DNA of 58,174 nucleotides from Minisyncoccota bacterium (lineage in GTDB: Bacteria; Patescibacteriota; Minisyncoccia; Phycocordibacterales; Phycocordibacteraceae). Within the stretch, counting starts at the first letter, position 1. The number at the start of each line of letters is the position of its first letter. The notes under the pieces are model-generated. The model did no database searches, had not been told where the DNA came from, and saw only the letters and a program-made list of their open reading frames with translations. Shown piece after piece: positions 1,894 to 8,313 of the stretch. The stretch spans positions 1 to 58,174 of the forward strand of contig JBBAAE010000004.1 in NCBI GenBank assembly GCA_041658485.1, written 5' to 3'. Position numbers and translations under genes: made by a program.

Positions 1894-3051
1894 ATGTTCG
1901 CTTTCCTTCGTACACTCTTGTTTGCACTCGCAGGACTCGCATTTGCCATAATAGCTGGCCTATCGACTGCCCCTGCTCATGTTTCAATTTCACAAGAAAG
2001 TACAACAACGAGTCCACAAAATTCATTCCCAACTATCTCAACTAGCACTCTTGCCGATATTATCAATGGCAACACAAAAGTGACAGAGAGTAGTGCCAGT
2101 GAAATTAGTCCAGCAAAAAAACTAGCTACCACCACACCCAAACAAACGACTACCCCAAAAACTACCACCGCGGTTATCGCACCACCTGTAAAAGAGCCAG
2201 TAAACCAAATAGCACTCAATGACAAAGTCCGCGGAGCCATTGTTAACATCATTTGCGTCACAAAAAACGCAGGACCTTTAAATTCTATTTCTGCCAGCGG
2301 TGTCATTATCGACCCAAGAGGCACCATCATTACAAACTCCCATGTTGGACAGTACCTTCTGCTTAAAGACTACCCAAGTGCAGGTTTCATAGAGTGCACC
2401 ATCCGAACAGGGAGTCCCGCGCAACCCAAATACACAGCAGAGCTCCTTTTTCTTCCTCCTTCGTGGATTGCTGACAACGCATCAAAAATAAATCAATCAA
2501 AACCAACAGGAAACGGGGAGCATGATTATGCATTCTTGCGCATCACAGGAACGGTGCACCCAAACATCACCCTACCTACAGCGTTTTCGTTTCTCTCAAT
2601 ATCTATTAGTCCACCCGAAGAAGGGCAAACCCTCATTGCCGCAGGCTACCCTGCGGGATTTTTAGGAGGTATCACGGTACAAAAAGATCTCTATGCGAGC
2701 TCGGCAATAACGCATGTCGGGGAGTTATTTACTTTCAAAACAGATACTATTGATCTTTTTTCTTTAGGAGGTTCCATCATTGCTCAACAAGGAGCATCTG
2801 GGGGTGCCACAGTAGATGAAAATGGTGCGCTTATGGGAATTATCGTAACCGCTACCGATGCCCCCGATACAGCATCCCGTGATTTGCGTGCCATCACCAC
2901 ACCCTACATCATTCGAGATTTCAAAAAAGAGTCTGGCGTAGCTATTGATACCTACCTTAATTCTGATACCGCGATTCAAGCGCAAACCTTTGCCAACACC
3001 GTAGCTCCTACACTCACCACACAACTTATAAAAGCTATAGAAAACCGTTAG
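1894..3051 (+). CDS. Secreted or membrane-anchored trypsin-like (S1) serine protease with a Thr-rich linker and no PDZ domain
   Basis: N-terminal hydrophobic helix; triad motifs ITNSHV, HDYAFLRI and QGASGG. Confidence 0.8.
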   Translation: MFAFLRTLLFALAGLAFAIIAGLSTAPAHVSISQESTTTSPQNSFPTISTSTLADIINGNTKVTESSASEISPAKKLATTTPKQTTTPKTTTAVIAPPVKEPVNQIALNDKVRGAIVNIICVTKNAGPLNSISASGVIIDPRGTIITNSHVGQYLLLKDYPSAGFIECTIRTGSPAQPKYTAELLFLPPSWIADNASKINQSKPTGNGEHDYAFLRITGTVHPNITLPTAFSFLSISISPPEEGQTLIAAGYPAGFLGGITVQKDLYASSAITHVGELFTFKTDTIDLFSLGGSIIAQQGASGGATVDENGALMGIIVTATDAPDTASRDLRAITTPYIIRDFKKESGVAIDTYLNSDTAIQAQTFANTVAPTLTTQLIKAIENR

Positions 3052-3174
3052 AAATCTACCCTCCGAAGAAGCAACAGGTCTTTGATATCGCACCCGCCCT
3101 CAGCTCAACATCATCTGCCCCCAACCTAACCCTATTACCGCCCAACTTGACTTCATATACATCTCTCTGCTACA

Positions 3175-3208
3175 GTATGTATCACTGTAGTACTACAGTG
3201 ATACATAC
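3175..3208. promoter_or_regulatory. Palindromic operator 1, upstream of the YerC/TrpR-like gene
   Basis: 34-bp perfect palindrome GTATGTATCACTGTAGT|ACTACAGTGATACATAC overlapping a candidate promoter (TTGACT 3147-3152, TGcTACAGT 3168-3176) and ending 1 nt before ATG 3210. Confidence 0.8.
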
Positions 3209-3209
3209 C

Positions 3210-3533
3210 ATGAATAGAGTGAACACAAAAAACAAAGCCTCCGCAAAAACCTCAGGTTCGAAGCAAAACCTAGGAGCTTTATATGATGCCTTCCTTTCGC
3301 TTAAAAACCGAGAGGAGTGTTCTGCATTCATGCGCGATCTTTGCACACAGGCAGAACTAGACGCATTTGCTGAGCGTTTTGCTATAGCTCGCCTACTTAC
3401 TAAAGACGTCTCATACCGCAACGCAGCAGACGAAACAGGTGCATCGACTACGACAGTGAGTCGTGTTTCCCATTGGCTCCACCATGGACGGGGCGGGTAC
3501 AGCACCATCATTTCTCGATTGCATAAAAAATAA
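3210..3533 (+). CDS. YerC/YecD TrpR-like repressor (HisR-like)
   Basis: LYDAFLSLKNREECSAFMRDLCTQAELDAFAERFAIARLL...SYRNAADETGASTTTVSRVSHWL, the YerC/YecD pattern. Start moved from TTG 3147 (which is the -35 box) to ATG 3210. Confidence 0.88.
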   Translation: MNRVNTKNKASAKTSGSKQNLGALYDAFLSLKNREECSAFMRDLCTQAELDAFAERFAIARLLTKDVSYRNAADETGASTTTVSRVSHWLHHGRGGYSTIISRLHKK

Positions 3534-3575
3534 TCTGACTATCCTCAGACGCAAAGAAAGAAAAATGCCATGCAC

Positions 3576-3598
3576 ACCGCCCCAAATAGGCGGTTTTT
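3576..3598 (+). terminator. Intrinsic terminator after the repressor gene
   Basis: ACCGCC-ccaaata-GGCGGT followed by TTTT. Confidence 0.6.
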
Positions 3599-3638
3599 AC
3601 TTTAAAAAATCACAATATCGCCCCCCCCTCCTCCTCAC

Positions 3639-3670
3639 TATGTATCACTGTAGTACTACAGTGATACATA
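3639..3670. promoter_or_regulatory. Palindromic operator 2, upstream of hisG
   Basis: 32-bp perfect palindrome TATGTATCACTGTAGTACTACAGTGATACATA, identical to the core of operator 1. Confidence 0.8.
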
Positions 3671-3728
3671 AAAGAGCAAAAAACAGAAAGACGGAAGCCG
3701 AAAAATAAAAACCATAACAATAAAAACT

Positions 3729-4580
3729 ATGAATGAAACACTAAAAAGGCCACGGCCAGATGCTTCACGCACAATGCGCGTGATTCCTGGTTCAAGAGCC
3801 GACAGACTCAACTGGCAACAAGAAGAGGCAGATCGTGCCCGCTACACACCAAGAATCCTTCCACCTGAACCCGAGGCGATTCTTGAGTACTATCAGCAAA
3901 GAAAAGCGGGGCGCGAGAGAGCCGAAAAAATCATCACCGAAATGGCTCAATCGGGGCAGGAGGTACGCATTGCAATACAAAAAAATGGACGGCTCTCAGC
4001 TATTGCATGGGGGCTCCTTGAAGCATGTCTAGAAGCAGCTGGAGTTCCGGTTACTGAAAAAGAGCGTCAGTTACAGCGAAAAAACAAAGCACTCGTATAT
4101 GAGATACCGACACTGCCTAATGTAAAGGTAGTATCCGCACGACAAAGCGATATTGCTTGGTATGTCGAAAGCGGAAACGCAGACATTGGAATCATCGGGG
4201 AGGACGAGGTACTTGAGAAAAAATCTAACGTTGAGATTGTGGCACGCCTAGGTTTGGGAGAATGTTCACTCGCCATTGCGGTGCCTGAGGGTTCTCAAAT
4301 TGCAACACTCAAAGACCTGAATGGTAAAACCATTGCCACATCCTTGCCATCAATTCTTAAAAAATACCTCAAAGAAAAAGGGGTGAAACCAAAAAGCATT
4401 ATAAAACTTGGCGGCTCTGTCGAAGCTGCAACAGCACTTGGCTTTGCAGATGCTGTGTGCGATATCACGGAAACTGGAAGCTCATTTGTGGCAAACGGGC
4501 TTACCGAACTTGAAACGGTTCGTGATTTTGAGGCAGTGGTCATAACTGCCAAAAAACCAAAAGTGAAATCAAAACGTTAA
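3729..4580 (+). CDS. hisG: ATP phosphoribosyltransferase with a ~75-aa N-terminal extension and no C-terminal regulatory domain
   Basis: RIAIQKNGRLS, DIAWYVESGNADIGIIGED, GSVEAATALGFADAVCDITETGSS; ends about 10 aa after the catalytic core. Confidence 0.92.
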   Translation: MNETLKRPRPDASRTMRVIPGSRADRLNWQQEEADRARYTPRILPPEPEAILEYYQQRKAGRERAEKIITEMAQSGQEVRIAIQKNGRLSAIAWGLLEACLEAAGVPVTEKERQLQRKNKALVYEIPTLPNVKVVSARQSDIAWYVESGNADIGIIGEDEVLEKKSNVEIVARLGLGECSLAIAVPEGSQIATLKDLNGKTIATSLPSILKKYLKEKGVKPKSIIKLGGSVEAATALGFADAVCDITETGSSFVANGLTELETVRDFEAVVITAKKPKVKSKR

Positions 4581-4584
4581 AAAT

Positions 4585-5274
4585 ATGGAATCTAAAGAAC
4601 TGGTCAGGAAGATGGACTGGGAGAAAGTAAACGGTCTCGTGCCAGCAATTATTCAGGATGCAAAAAACGGCTTGGTGCTCATGCTTGGATATATGAACGA
4701 AGAAGCACTGACACGAACTGTAAACACTGGCTCGGTGTGGTTTTACAGCCGTACCAGAAAAACCTTATGGAAGAAAGGTGAAACGTCGGGCAATGTGCTC
4801 TCCGTCGAAGATATACGTGTGGACTGCGACAACGACACCATCCTCATAAAAGCTCGCCCCACTGGACCCGTGTGTCACACGGGAGATACAACCTGCTTCA
4901 AAGAAGAAGCAACAAGAAACGAGCTCTCGCTACTTTTCGGAGTACTCGAACAACGCAAACGAGATTTACCAAAAGACTCCTATACTACAAAGCTTTTTGA
5001 AGCAGGACTCGACAGAATTGCACTCAAAGTTGCTGAAGAGTCACTTGAAGTAATTCAAGCTGCTACTAAAGAAACACGCGAAAGAACAATAGAGGAAACG
5101 GCTGACCTCCTCTATCACCTTTTTGTTCTTTTGGTTCAAAAAAATATAACCCTGCAGGACGTAGAAAAAGAACTTCAAAAGCGTGCTGGGAGAAAGCCCC
5201 GTGAAGACAAGATTTCAATTCCTATCGTAGCAGATTTTCAACCTGCACGTACCACAGATACTTCTACTCAGTAA
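4585..5274 (+). CDS. hisIE: Bifunctional phosphoribosyl-AMP cyclohydrolase / phosphoribosyl-ATP pyrophosphatase
   Basis: FYSRTRKTLWKKGETSGN...DCDNDT...GPVCHTG (HisI) fused to KVAEESLEV...ETADLLYHL (HisE). Confidence 0.95.
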   Translation: MESKELVRKMDWEKVNGLVPAIIQDAKNGLVLMLGYMNEEALTRTVNTGSVWFYSRTRKTLWKKGETSGNVLSVEDIRVDCDNDTILIKARPTGPVCHTGDTTCFKEEATRNELSLLFGVLEQRKRDLPKDSYTTKLFEAGLDRIALKVAEESLEVIQAATKETRERTIEETADLLYHLFVLLVQKNITLQDVEKELQKRAGRKPREDKISIPIVADFQPARTTDTSTQ

Positions 5275-5292
5275 AAAATAACCAACACTACC

Positions 5293-5430
5293 ATGAAAGA
5301 AAAGAACAACCCTCCGTGGCCATACAAAGAAAATGGGCAAGCATTTATTGGCGAAGGCCGTGGTGCACCAGAGGCAAAAATAAAACCGAAATCAGAAGAA
5401 AAAATGACATCCGAAAAACCAAAAAGGTGA
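5293..5430 (+). CDS. Possible 45-aa peptide (MKEKNNPPWPYKENGQAF...)
   Basis: Hand-translated ORF that fills the hisIE-guaA gap exactly. Confidence 0.3.
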   Translation: MKEKNNPPWPYKENGQAFIGEGRGAPEAKIKPKSEEKMTSEKPKR

Positions 5431-5431
5431 A

Positions 5432-6961
5432 CTACTCGTACTCAATAGTTGCGGGAGGTTTCTGAGTAACATCATACAAAACACGATTCACACCGCGCAC
5501 CTTCCCTACAATCGCGCTTGAAATCTTCTCCAAAAGTTCGTGTGGCATTTTGTGCCAATCAGCGCTCATACCATCAATAGAATCAACGGCGCGAAGCGCA
5601 ATAATGTATTCATAGGTGCGAGCGTCTCCCATGACGCCAACTACTTTGAGGGGTAAAAGTGCTGCAAACGATTGCCAAATCTTCTCGTACTCCCCTGCCT
5701 CTTTAAGTTCTGCAGTAAAAACAGCATCTGCTTCACGCAAAATTGCGAGGCGTTCAGGTGTAATTTCACCAACGATACGAATCGCAAGTCCTGGACCAGG
5801 AAACGGATGACGCCAGACTAGCCCGTGCGGTAAGCCTAACTCTTCTCCAACACGACGCACTTCATCTTTATAGAGATCCTTCACTGGTTCAACTATTTTC
5901 AATTTCATTCGCTCGGGTAGTGTGAGGTTATGATGACTTTTTATTTTAGATGCATGCTTGGATGTTGACGCAGATTCGACGCGATCGGGATAAATAGTTC
6001 CCTGTGCAAGGTACGCAATTGGAAATGCTTTTAATTCTTCGGTCAATGCTTTTTCAAACACTTCTACGAACGAATGGCCAATGATTTTTCGTTTTTCTTC
6101 TGGCTCAGTAACTCCTACCAAGCGTGACAAAAACATTTCGCTCGCATCAATAACATGGAGATTTTTAAACCCTTGCGAACGCAGAGACTTAGAAACGCTT
6201 TCTACCTCCCCTTTGCGAAGTAAGCCTGTATCAACAAATACTGCGTGCAAACGATTCCCGATCGCTTTGTAGAGGAGAGTGGCGGCAACGAGTGAATCTA
6301 CACCTCCAGAAATTCCGACAACCACATGCCCATCGCCTATTTCTTTTTTTAAGTCTGCGATAATATTTTTCGCAACAGATTTCATGTCCCAATCTTTCTT
6401 AGCTTTGCAGATACCAAAGATAAAATTCGATATTATTTTTTTACCATGAACTGTGTGCGTTACTTCCGGATGAAATTGAATACCAAAGAATCGGCGTTTC
6501 TCGTCAGCAAATCCAGCATGTGCACAGGTTTTTGTGGAAGCGGTCACCACAAAGCCTTTTGGCAATTTTGTTGCTTGATCACCGTGCGAAAACCATACAA
6601 CCTCTTTCGCTACAAGCCCTTTAAGAATGCCTGTTTTCTTTTTTATTGAAACAACTTCTTTCCCAAACTCTTTATTCTCTTTATTTTGTACTTTTCCACC
6701 TAAAAGATGCGCCATTAACTGATGCCCATAACAAATACCGAGGATAGGGACACCGAGCTCAAATACTCGTTTGTCTGGTAGAGGACCATTTTCCAGCACT
6801 GAATGAGGGCTTCCTGAGAGAATGATGCCAACGGGGTTCAAAGCCTGAATCTCCTCTATTGTTGCGTCTCCATGCAAAATCTCGGCCTTCACGCCGAGAT
6901 CACGAACCCTTCTTGCAATAAGGTGAGCAAACTGTCCTCCAAAATTGAGAACTACAATCAT
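5432..6961 (-). CDS. guaA: Glutamine-hydrolysing GMP synthase
   Basis: FGGQFAHLIARRVR, GICYGHQ, QFHPEV, SGGVDS, RHPFPGPGLAIR, KPPATIEYE. Confidence 0.97.
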   Translation of the reverse strand: MIVVLNFGGQFAHLIARRVRDLGVKAEILHGDATIEEIQALNPVGIILSGSPHSVLENGPLPDKRVFELGVPILGICYGHQLMAHLLGGKVQNKENKEFGKEVVSIKKKTGILKGLVAKEVVWFSHGDQATKLPKGFVVTASTKTCAHAGFADEKRRFFGIQFHPEVTHTVHGKKIISNFIFGICKAKKDWDMKSVAKNIIADLKKEIGDGHVVVGISGGVDSLVAATLLYKAIGNRLHAVFVDTGLLRKGEVESVSKSLRSQGFKNLHVIDASEMFLSRLVGVTEPEEKRKIIGHSFVEVFEKALTEELKAFPIAYLAQGTIYPDRVESASTSKHASKIKSHHNLTLPERMKLKIVEPVKDLYKDEVRRVGEELGLPHGLVWRHPFPGPGLAIRIVGEITPERLAILREADAVFTAELKEAGEYEKIWQSFAALLPLKVVGVMGDARTYEYIIALRAVDSIDGMSADWHKMPHELLEKISSAIVGKVRGVNRVLYDVTQKPPATIEYE

Positions 6962-7050
6962 GCTTCATTTTACCTCAGCCTAGAAGTTTTTTCAAATTTT
7001 TTATAATCACATCGTTCCTCAATATAATTGTAAAAAGAGCTCTACATCTC

Positions 7051-8313
7051 TTAAAGTCCTATATTGACGCTACCGTTTCCACTACCTCCAACGTTCACAG
7101 CACCACCTGTATTCGCCTCTATGTGCACACCCGTTGGAACCTCTGTTTTGATTTCAATTGGAAGTATCTCTCTAGACTTTGGCGGAGTATTCATATCAGT
7201 ATCTGCTTCCGTACCTTTGCTCGTACCATCATGAGCACCCTCGGAAGAAGAATCTTTTACTGGATCGGCAATTTTTATATTTACTCCGCCAGAAGCACCG
7301 AGATAGACCGCGAGTTTCTTCATGGTGACTAAGGCATCCTGGTACGCATGGAATGCGCCAGTAAAATCACTCGTCTTGAAAAGCGTATCGCCTTTCGCTG
7401 AAAGTTCTGTCGCGGCTTTAATTTGAGCTTGTGCGTTAACAATAGCGGATGCTTCGAGCTTTCTATTTGCACGTGCGAGAAGATCTTCTGTATCTTTAAT
7501 GGCCGTTTTCACAGCCCTGCCCATTGCAAACGCAGTATCCGCTTTAACTCGAGTGTCTACTTTCACGGACTCTGAGACGCCAGAAGCTTTGCGAGCAGTG
7601 ACTTTCGTCGCAGAGCGAGCGCTTACTTCAGCATCGCCTTCTGCATCCATACGAAGCTTTGAAATCAAGAGCGCTTTCGCACGTACAACGGTGCGTAAAG
7701 CTCCCGTGTCTCCTTTTGAATCCGCAAGAAGCTCCTCATGAGCAACAAGATTACTTTCAAAATTTGATGCAAACCCTATAGCAATAGCTGCGTCTTTCTT
7801 TTCTAATTCTTTTGTATATTCCACAGCTGAATCAGCGTGGGTAGAAAAATCACTTGAGAGCTCGGCGCTCACATCAGCGGTAAGTTTATCTTCCGCAGCA
7901 AGATTTGTAGCCTCTAGAAGACGACGCTCTGCAAGCTTTGCTTGGAGTTTAGCTTTAGACTCTGGGGACAATGCTAATGCGCCTCCAACTTTCTCATTGA
8001 CGCTCACTTTTACTGGGTAAAGTAAATCGCCCGGCATAGAACCTTCTGCGGCGTACGATGCGGTTCCTGAAAGAAGGAGCCCTAAAACAATTGCGATAGG
8101 AATATATTTTCTCTTTGAGTGCATAAAAAATAAACCTGAAAAGAAATTTTCTTTCGCCCCCGTACGGCGTTTATCCTGAGCCGACTCTGCAACCCGTAGT
8201 GGCTTCATTGCCTTATACTCCATCAACACACCCTCAAGCTTCTCTCGCTCCAATGTTGAAAGCGATGTAGCATCACCAACTTTTTTTATGTAATCAATGA
8301 GATTAATTTTCAT
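7051..8313 (-). CDS. DUF5667-domain single-pass membrane protein, putative anti-sigma partner
   Basis: A TM helix followed by SMPGDLLYPVK...NE...AERRLLEA; lies 7 nt downstream of the ECF sigma. Start moved to ATG 8313. Confidence 0.7.
   Translation of the reverse strand: MKINLIDYIKKVGDATSLSTLEREKLEGVLMEYKAMKPLRVAESAQDKRRTGAKENFFSGLFFMHSKRKYIPIAIVLGLLLSGTASYAAEGSMPGDLLYPVKVSVNEKVGGALALSPESKAKLQAKLAERRLLEATNLAAEDKLTADVSAELSSDFSTHADSAVEYTKELEKKDAAIAIGFASNFESNLVAHEELLADSKGDTGALRTVVRAKALLISKLRMDAEGDAEVSARSATKVTARKASGVSESVKVDTRVKADTAFAMGRAVKTAIKDTEDLLARANRKLEASAIVNAQAQIKAATELSAKGDTLFKTSDFTGAFHAYQDALVTMKKLAVYLGASGGVNIKIADPVKDSSSEGAHDGTSKGTEADTDMNTPPKSREILPIEIKTEVPTGVHIEANTGGAVNVGGSGNGSVNIGL

Follow-up and report, generated by a model that had tools for sequence, protein, structure and literature searches.

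HisR (also named YerC) is a TrpR-like histidine repressor described in Firmicutes, Actinobacteria, Synergistetes and Proteobacteria (Ashniev et al., 2022, PMC9413887). It recognizes TrpR-like palindromes of about 20 bp, its regulons consist of his operons and histidine transporters, and the hisR genes are autoregulated in about half of the cases (PMC9413887). HisR of Ruminococcus gnavus showed histidine-stimulated DNA binding in vitro, and the published study leaves Patescibacteria uncovered (PMC9413887). Here we analyzed a yerC-hisG-hisIE locus in a stretch of 58,174 nt (the window), which is contig JBBAAE010000004.1 (our C4) of assembly GCA_041658485.1 from a Minisyncoccota bacterium of the Patescibacteria; relatives are referred to by our own genome numbers (G002 and so on). 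Taken together, the locus is probably a HisR-type switch over a stand-alone, selectively maintained HisG-HisIE module and a transporter-like target. The regulator is of a known kind but in a phylum new to it; its predicted operators are unusually long and perfect, and its cargo is an orphan his fragment and a new transporter-like target. To our knowledge, gene regulation in Patescibacteria, or the candidate phyla radiation (CPR), is almost unexplored. The locus provides a clean candidate regulator-operator pair in this group, in which a small protein would act on three targets through a perfect palindrome.

The yerC gene (3210-3533, + strand) encodes a 107-aa protein of the TrpR family. It matched the model of the YerC/YecD subfamily (TIGR02531) with 85.2 bits against a cut-off of 42.2 and the Trp_repressor domain (PF01371) with 82 bits, and its match to TrpR proper (TIGR01321; 23 bits against a cut-off of 67) was far too low. 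By consensus scan, a promoter-like site lies upstream on the same strand (3147-3176), with a -35 box TTGACT (3147-3152), an 18-nt spacer and an extended -10 box TGcTACAGT (3168-3176). This TTGACT-18-TACAGT element with its upstream TG finishes exactly where a palindrome begins. The sequence TATGTATCACTGTAGTACTACAGTGATACATA is a perfect 32-bp palindrome (100% self-complementary) with two copies in the window (3176-3207 and 3639-3670). The first copy forms most of the predicted operator O1 (3175-3208, not strand-specific), a 34-bp perfect palindrome extending from the last bases of the -10 box across the expected transcription start (+1), with its right edge 2 nt short of the yerC ATG. The second predicted operator, O2 (3639-3670, not strand-specific), is the same 32-bp perfect palindrome and lies 58 nt 5' of the hisG ATG. 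The 24-bp core of the palindrome matched twice in the window and not once in 100 shuffles of it. Between yerC and O2 there is an intrinsic-terminator-like hairpin, ACCGCC...GGCGGT followed by a T-run (3576-3604, + strand), whose counterpart is conserved in relatives.

The cTTGAC and TGnTAnAGT boxes are kept in six relatives with a variable spacer sequence, and the palindrome always begins at the end of the -10 box. This arrangement suggests that transcription should begin inside the left arm of the palindrome, which favors a site in DNA over an RNA hairpin. In a more distant genome, a CTTGAC box is also present 5' of yerC and is followed by a different palindrome. RNA control by a His leader or a T-box was considered and rejected, because an Rfam scan of 2900-5600 (E<=1) gave neither (RF00514, RF00230) and no run of His codons occurs in the 58 nt that separate O2 from the start of hisG. 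The original prediction, which was made from the letters of this stretch, had placed an identical 32-bp palindrome before both yerC and hisG-hisIE (34 bp at yerC), the first of them over the -10/+1 region, with a terminator separating the two units and no His-codon leader peptide. The coordinates, the self-complementarity, the promoter overlap in six genomes, the position of the terminator and the negative Rfam result all agree with it. Its term "twin" operators needs correction, as a whole-genome scan found exactly one copy beyond the two in the window. This third exact copy is on contig C12 (12971-13016), where the perfect symmetry is stretched to 46 bp.

About 30 nt separate the C12 copy from the gene downstream of it, which encodes a 204-aa seven-helix membrane protein (C12:12327-12941, - strand) and directly follows guaB. 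The palindrome before this gene is kept in four congeneric genomes (G032, G016 and G029 among the relatives), and it also precedes the gene for a 68% identical protein in a fifth genome, again downstream of guaB. The synteny of guaB with the membrane protein gene was seen in at least two genomes; of the contexts of three distant homologues, one had both the guaB synteny and the palindrome and two were uninformative. The membrane protein belongs to a large family, which appears to be specific to Patescibacteria. Its AlphaFold model, built with 35 homologues, reached a predicted local distance difference test (pLDDT) score of 90. Foldseek matched this model to cystinosin (probability 1.0; template modeling score, TM, 0.47-0.51), to the KDEL receptor (TM 0.56-0.60) and more weakly to PnuC, with E-values that are weak for an assignment as a transporter (0.02-0.4). 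The protein had no sequence match in Pfam or the Protein Data Bank (PDB), and both of these facts count against its role as a transporter. The model suggests a fold of the PQ-loop/SWEET-like seven-helix transporter type. Among the eukaryotic PQ-loop proteins, PQLC2 and Ypq, for example, are transporters of Arg, Lys and His. The natural reading of the model and the site together is a putative importer of histidine or a related basic compound under control of HisR, with the substrate inferred. Such a protein would link histidine supply to an uncharacterized membrane-protein family found across the CPR, a point of importance for organisms that depend on the import of amino acids. The suggestion that the remaining regulon could be found with the operator sequence holds for this one additional target, and it fails for the missing his genes, none of which the genome contains. 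As for the neighbor, guaB (inosine-5'-monophosphate dehydrogenase, IMPDH; C12:13113-14165, - strand) encodes 350 aa with a complete barrel (PF00478, 410 bits) and no CBS domain among its Pfam matches.

The system resembles the described HisR regulons in the subfamily (TIGR02531), the TrpR-like palindromes, the site at the regulator's own gene and the his and transporter-like targets (PMC9413887). It differs from them in that the his genes under control are a truncated, dead-end set and in that the putative transporter is outside all the described histidine-transporter families. In the core TCACTGTAGTACTACAGTGA, the CAC...GTG ends are like those of the Firmicutes HisR motif and the TGTA...TACA blocks are like the proteobacterial and TrpR motifs, while the spacing and the length differ from both. 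The operators of E. coli TrpR (TGTACTnGTnnACnAGTACA), a regulator of the same fold family, are likewise GTAC-centered symmetric sites with TGTA/TACA blocks, but the targets here are his genes and not trp or aro genes. The TGTA...TACA blocks recur at 8-bp spacing within the palindrome, a periodicity that we take to be compatible with tandem binding of dimers as in TrpR.

To see how the motif is distributed, a 20-bp core was scanned with up to two mismatches in 48 genomes, with the reversed pattern as a control. The core was present at one to five copies in 14 of the 21 yerC-bearing congeners and missing from 26 of the 27 tested genomes without an over-threshold yerC, and the control gave one match, in one of the 48 genomes. 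One copy was always within about 30 nt of the yerC start and over the conserved -10/+1 region. The arms differ symmetrically between lineages (TCACTGT...ACAGTGA, TCACCGT...ACGGTGA, TGTGGTACCACA / GTGGTACCAC and GTTAAC-type cores), and the target sites tolerate imperfection as single mismatches in one arm. The genome studied here has two more TrpR-like paralogues of 142-148 aa, both under the TIGR02531 cut-off, and similar paralogues are found in most congeners. One is at C10:393-839 (+ strand); the other is a 142-aa open reading frame (ORF), whose match to TIGR02531 spans C10:7713-7961 (- strand). Each of them has its own, different perfect palindrome just 5' of the start codon (TTTTACACTCACCCATATATGGGTGAGTGTAAAA and ACTATCATATATGATAGT).

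On this evidence, the palindromes are probably repressor operators. Another explanation would be that they are elements of a hairpin or cruciform kind, either bidirectional terminators or a low-copy repeat similar to the repetitive extragenic palindromes (REP) and spreading by copying from one intergenic region to another, with the adjacency to yerC incidental or secondary. We consider this unlikely, though several facts speak for it or otherwise weigh against the operator interpretation. The palindromes are 32-46 bp long and perfect, whereas the described HisR sites are of about 20 bp and degenerate, and the core resembles the TGTA...TACA type of TrpR and proteobacterial HisR more than the cacTTTA-N6-TAAAgtg of Firmicutes. 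Around O2, no sigma-70 promoter was recognizable by consensus scan and by alignment of relatives. The C12 copy is trailed by a T-rich tail and scores as a terminator, so that it might also terminate guaB. Unlike in the described HisR regulons, some copies in relatives sit at the 3' ends of genes, namely between convergent ends (hisIE/guaA in G023 and G032, msrA/x and folA/x); others lie between operon genes (a KH-protein gene and trmD) and one is inside purD. Within one genome, the copies do not differ over 30-46 bp and have variants in common that are specific to that genome, even asymmetric ones. Moreover, G002 has no YerC orthologue, yet it retains two copies bearing one shared asymmetric change, which points to copying between sites rather than to selection by a symmetric dimer. 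The 3'-end copies and the two copies of G002 indicate some copy-and-spread behavior.

On the other hand, the pattern is not that of a many-copy, regulator-independent REP or miniature inverted-repeat transposable element (MITE), because there are just one to five copies per genome and they are largely confined to genomes with yerC. The constant position over the -10/+1 region of yerC, with the start inside the left arm, would leave no full hairpin in the RNA, and neither O1 nor O2 is followed by a T-run. The distinct palindromes at the TrpR-like paralogues and the precedent of the HisR family (PMC9413887) also argue for operators. Accordingly to the same kinds of evidence, that is, the family match, the position of O1, the tracking of yerC by the motif and the HisR precedent, the original proposal of an autoregulated YerC-type mini-regulon is supported. 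As a separate observation, the KH-protein gene/trmD and msrA 3'-end positions are orthologous non-promoter palindrome positions in several congeners including G002, and the genome studied here has no palindrome copy at either of them.

If the palindromes are operators, YerC would be a repressor of the HisR type, and we infer, by analogy with the characterized HisR, that its histidine-loaded dimer binds the palindrome with histidine as co-repressor. More than one dimer might be bound in tandem, given the 8-bp spacing of the repeats. At O1, YerC would occlude the -10/+1 region of its own promoter, resulting in autoregulation. At O2, it would block either initiation or read-through into hisG-hisIE, and at the C12 copy it would control the seven-helix membrane protein, which we take to import some compound, with histidine or a related basic one as the most plausible substrate. 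Low histidine would lead to derepression of all three units. HisG would then convert ATP and 5-phosphoribosyl 1-pyrophosphate (PRPP) into phosphoribosyl-ATP (PR-ATP), and HisIE would convert this via phosphoribosyl-AMP (PR-AMP) into phosphoribosylformimino-5-aminoimidazole-4-carboxamide ribonucleotide (ProFAR). A connection of yerC with histidine is also seen in relatives: a full hisGDCBHAF-IE operon follows yerC in G023, and in G020 yerC adjoins the one hisS of the genome.

The hisG gene (3729-4580, + strand) encodes a short-form ATP phosphoribosyltransferase, which matched TIGR00070 with 161 bits over residues 79-272 (the catalytic core) only. The profile searches found no C-terminal regulatory domain HisG_C (PF08029) in it, and the alignment showed that the canonical invariant and catalytic residues are retained. 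In these respects it resembles the short-form HisGS of Acinetobacter and Psychrobacter, a two-domain catalytic core with the catalytic motifs but without the histidine-binding C-terminal domain (PMC10795190, PMC9734150). It differs from HisGS in that the genome has neither the partner hisZ nor the downstream pathway, and in that HisG of this Patescibacteria clade has two features of its own, a helical N-terminal extension of 78 aa and an insertion of 11 aa. The extension is conserved, with the motif PGSRADRxNWxxEEADRxRYTPRILPPEPxAILEYY, and persists down to 53% identity. An AlphaFold2 monomer model predicts residues 1-22 as disordered and helices at 23-39 and 48-74. By eye, the extension resembles small ORFs or N-termini of other genes found at this position in relatives. 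The closest relatives of the HisG core outside Patescibacteria are long-form HisG of Bacteroidota (42-45% identity). The hisIE gene (4585-5274, + strand) encodes a bifunctional PR-AMP cyclohydrolase/PR-ATP pyrophosphohydrolase (NF002747, 267 bits against a cut-off of 187) with both domains (PF01502 and PF01503), and the motifs DCDND...CH...C and EExxE can be read from its sequence.

It is evident that the early steps are not continued in this genome, which is 959 kb in 50 contigs with an estimated completeness of 100% and contamination of 0.14%. A search of the genome with PF00977 (hisA/F) gave only a weak sub-threshold match inside guaB, and one with PF00815 (hisD) gave no match. Only one HisRS-type gene (PF13393) was found in the genome, that of histidyl-tRNA synthetase (HisRS) on C6, and no hisZ. 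Similarly, tblastn of the genome with HisD, HisC, HisB and HisH-A-F of a congener found nothing. The steps after ProFAR (hisD, C, B, H, A and F) are absent from the whole genome and not just from the window. The original prediction had noted that only the first three steps are encoded in the window and had called for a search for the others; the absence now extends to a genome estimated as complete, with no complete conventional pathway elsewhere. As no enzyme takes ProFAR on to histidine, the module alone is not the histidine pathway of this cell. We commit to the view that its end products would be PR-ATP, PR-AMP and ProFAR and that these would serve something else than the cell's own histidine synthesis.

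Nevertheless, the module might still serve histidine synthesis, if the missing steps were supplied by an attached host or partner cell or by unrecognized, non-homologous enzymes of its own. Control by a histidine repressor is what the entry step of a biosynthetic pathway would have, Patescibacteria are attached to and dependent on hosts, and many genes in the genome are unannotated. However, ProFAR, as a doubly phosphorylated nucleotide, would be unlikely to pass through a membrane. Six later steps would need to be replaced, and no hisA/F-like barrel was found in the genome except guaB. Moreover, several relatives keep hisG alone without hisI and hisE, which would make no sense in a shared linear pathway. 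For these reasons, we consider a role in histidine synthesis improbable.

Whether the module is retained for a function can be judged from its evolution. The ratio dN/dS, calculated pairwise among four genomes (dS 0.4-1.1), ranged from 0.09 to 0.12 in hisG, and from 0.08 to 0.21 when its N-terminal extension was taken by itself; the range was 0.06-0.14 in hisIE and 0.07-0.10 in yerC. These values mean that hisG-hisIE is under purifying selection, as judged from the sequences, and not decaying. The surroundings of the module are variable. The genus has a backbone of protease - yerC - slot - guaA, and the cargo of the slot varies. In our genome and in G016, G013 and G032, the slot holds hisG of the N-extension type and hisIE. 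In G029, G010, G028 and G003, it holds a different short hisG alone, with no hisI anywhere in these genomes, and in a more distant genome the N-extension hisG stands alone between yerC and guaA. In G023, the same locus reads protease - palindrome - yerC - hisG-D-C-B-(H-A-F fusion) - ...hisE - palindrome - guaA, which is a complete his operon. In G013, the gap between yerC and hisG is about 100 nt without the second palindrome, so that O2 is absent there.

The G023 operon invites the idea that hisG-hisIE is a decaying remnant, left after deletion of hisD to hisF from a G023-like operon, with no present function and with its regulation as a leftover. Loss of the middle part from a complete operon in this position would bring hisG and hisIE together. 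In addition, the HisE end of G023 is far closer to that of our genome than is its HisG (33%), as judged by eye without a computed alignment, and other congeners hold only hisG or nothing. An origin through operon deletion is plausible from such gene orders. But the present state as a mere remnant is very unlikely, considering dN/dS of about 0.1 for both hisIE and hisG including its extension, the intact catalytic residues and the persistence of the N-extension type of HisG down to 53% identity. Furthermore, the flanking genes of G029 are 90-97% identical to those of our genome and its hisG is just 45% identical, which indicates that the cassette was exchanged and did not slowly decay.

Outside the genus as well, orphan hisG recurs. 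In a sample of 400 Patescibacteria genomes, hisG was found in 22, of which 12 also have hisA and hisF. About nine of the 400 (about 2%), from several families and mostly 99-100% complete, have hisG without hisA/hisF, with lower scores to the HisG family models. Their gene contexts are yerC-hisG, yerC-hisI-hisG, yerC-hisG-hisI-LOG, hisI-hisG, hisG-hisE-hisS and hisG-hisE-prs. Thus, orphan HisG forms a recurrent module of Patescibacteria, in some cases with HisI or HisE and usually together with yerC, and this recurrence also speaks against a remnant. Our literature search revealed no publication on hisG in Patescibacteria. The combination of purifying selection and recurrent orphan hisG beside yerC leads us to favor a module that would serve another purpose.

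What this purpose may be can be considered only tentatively. A possible view, which we hold with clearly less confidence than that of the HisR-type switch itself, is that HisR governs a stand-alone nucleotide-modifying module, in which HisG, divergent and independent of HisZ, would on histidine starvation yield an end product with a new role, namely PR-ATP, or ProFAR where HisE and HisI are present. The product, or HisG, could be a starvation signal or a brake on the use of ATP and PRPP. Other possibilities are a modulator of the sole HisRS (the parent of HisZ) and the first part of an adenine-to-IMP (inosine monophosphate) shunt feeding guaB/guaA/purB. If so, the other enzymes of the slot, namely the phosphoribosyltransferase (PRTase)-like, LOG-like, radical S-adenosylmethionine (SAM) and AstE-like ones, would be alternative solutions to the same task. 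The closest precedent is PenA, the HisG homologue of the pentostatin cluster, in which a HisG-type enzyme and early his intermediates are put to a non-histidine use (PMC12648386). The present case differs, as no PenB/PenC-type partners are near hisG and as PenA runs beside a complete primary his pathway in the secondary metabolism of Streptomyces (PMC12648386). An orphan HisG under strong selection implies either a novel use of PR-ATP or ProFAR or a second job of HisG, and either answer would add a new branch to a very well-studied pathway.

With regard to the other cargo of the slot, G020 has its only hisS there, G007 a methyltransferase and a 2-oxoglutarate (2OG) oxygenase, G021 and G027 a radical SAM enzyme, G022 and G005 an AstE/AspA-like hydrolase, and G024 a PRTase-like protein. 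A LOG-like protein occupies the slot in G026 and, at a second yerC locus, in G024, and a LOG-type phosphoribohydrolase adjoins hisG-hisI in G454. Further cargo in congeners includes a 443-504-aa protein of no recognized family and a 273-aa protein with an ACGSG motif, which is DapF-like by eye and has no Pfam match. In G029, an ORF of 86 aa that is rich in Cys (CxxC repeats) and zinc-finger-like comes before the short hisG (locus L019 reverse-complemented, 7490-7750). An ORF of about 54 aa ending with KADxWDLLRE lies between yerC and the second palindrome in G016, G032, G029 and G019 (L019 region 7038-7358) and is deleted in the genome studied here.

As to nucleotide metabolism, the genome has prs for PRPP synthesis. 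A shunt from ATP to IMP through LOG is unsupported, as there is no LOG homologue in this genome. A link between the module and PurH or 5-aminoimidazole-4-carboxamide ribonucleotide (AICAR) was also considered, since a PurH-like gene is present in 16 of the 18 module-bearing genomes. This is uninformative, because purD and purB are present too and AICAR is hence an ordinary intermediate in this genome, so that PurH possibly belongs to ordinary purine synthesis. The PurH-like protein (C15:6238-7287; 349 aa) covers the AICARFT_IMPCHas profile at positions 67-311 only, so that an N-terminal part seems to be missing. The purD gene (C15:13777-15039) lies 6.5 kb from it. The purine synthesis of this genome may go beyond the norm of Patescibacteria.

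Finally, the sequence of the locus is present in three DNA metagenome runs, one from a landfill, one from groundwater and one unlabelled, and no RNA runs containing it were found. The cassette is closed by an ORF of 45 aa with the motif GEGRGAPEA (5293-5430, + strand), whose stop comes to within 1 nt of that of guaA, a convergent gene. This peptide has no match in Pfam or NCBIfam. It was detected by tblastn in G016, G029, G032 and G013, and similar peptides occur in G010 and in G019, which lacks hisG and has an operator-like site before the peptide.

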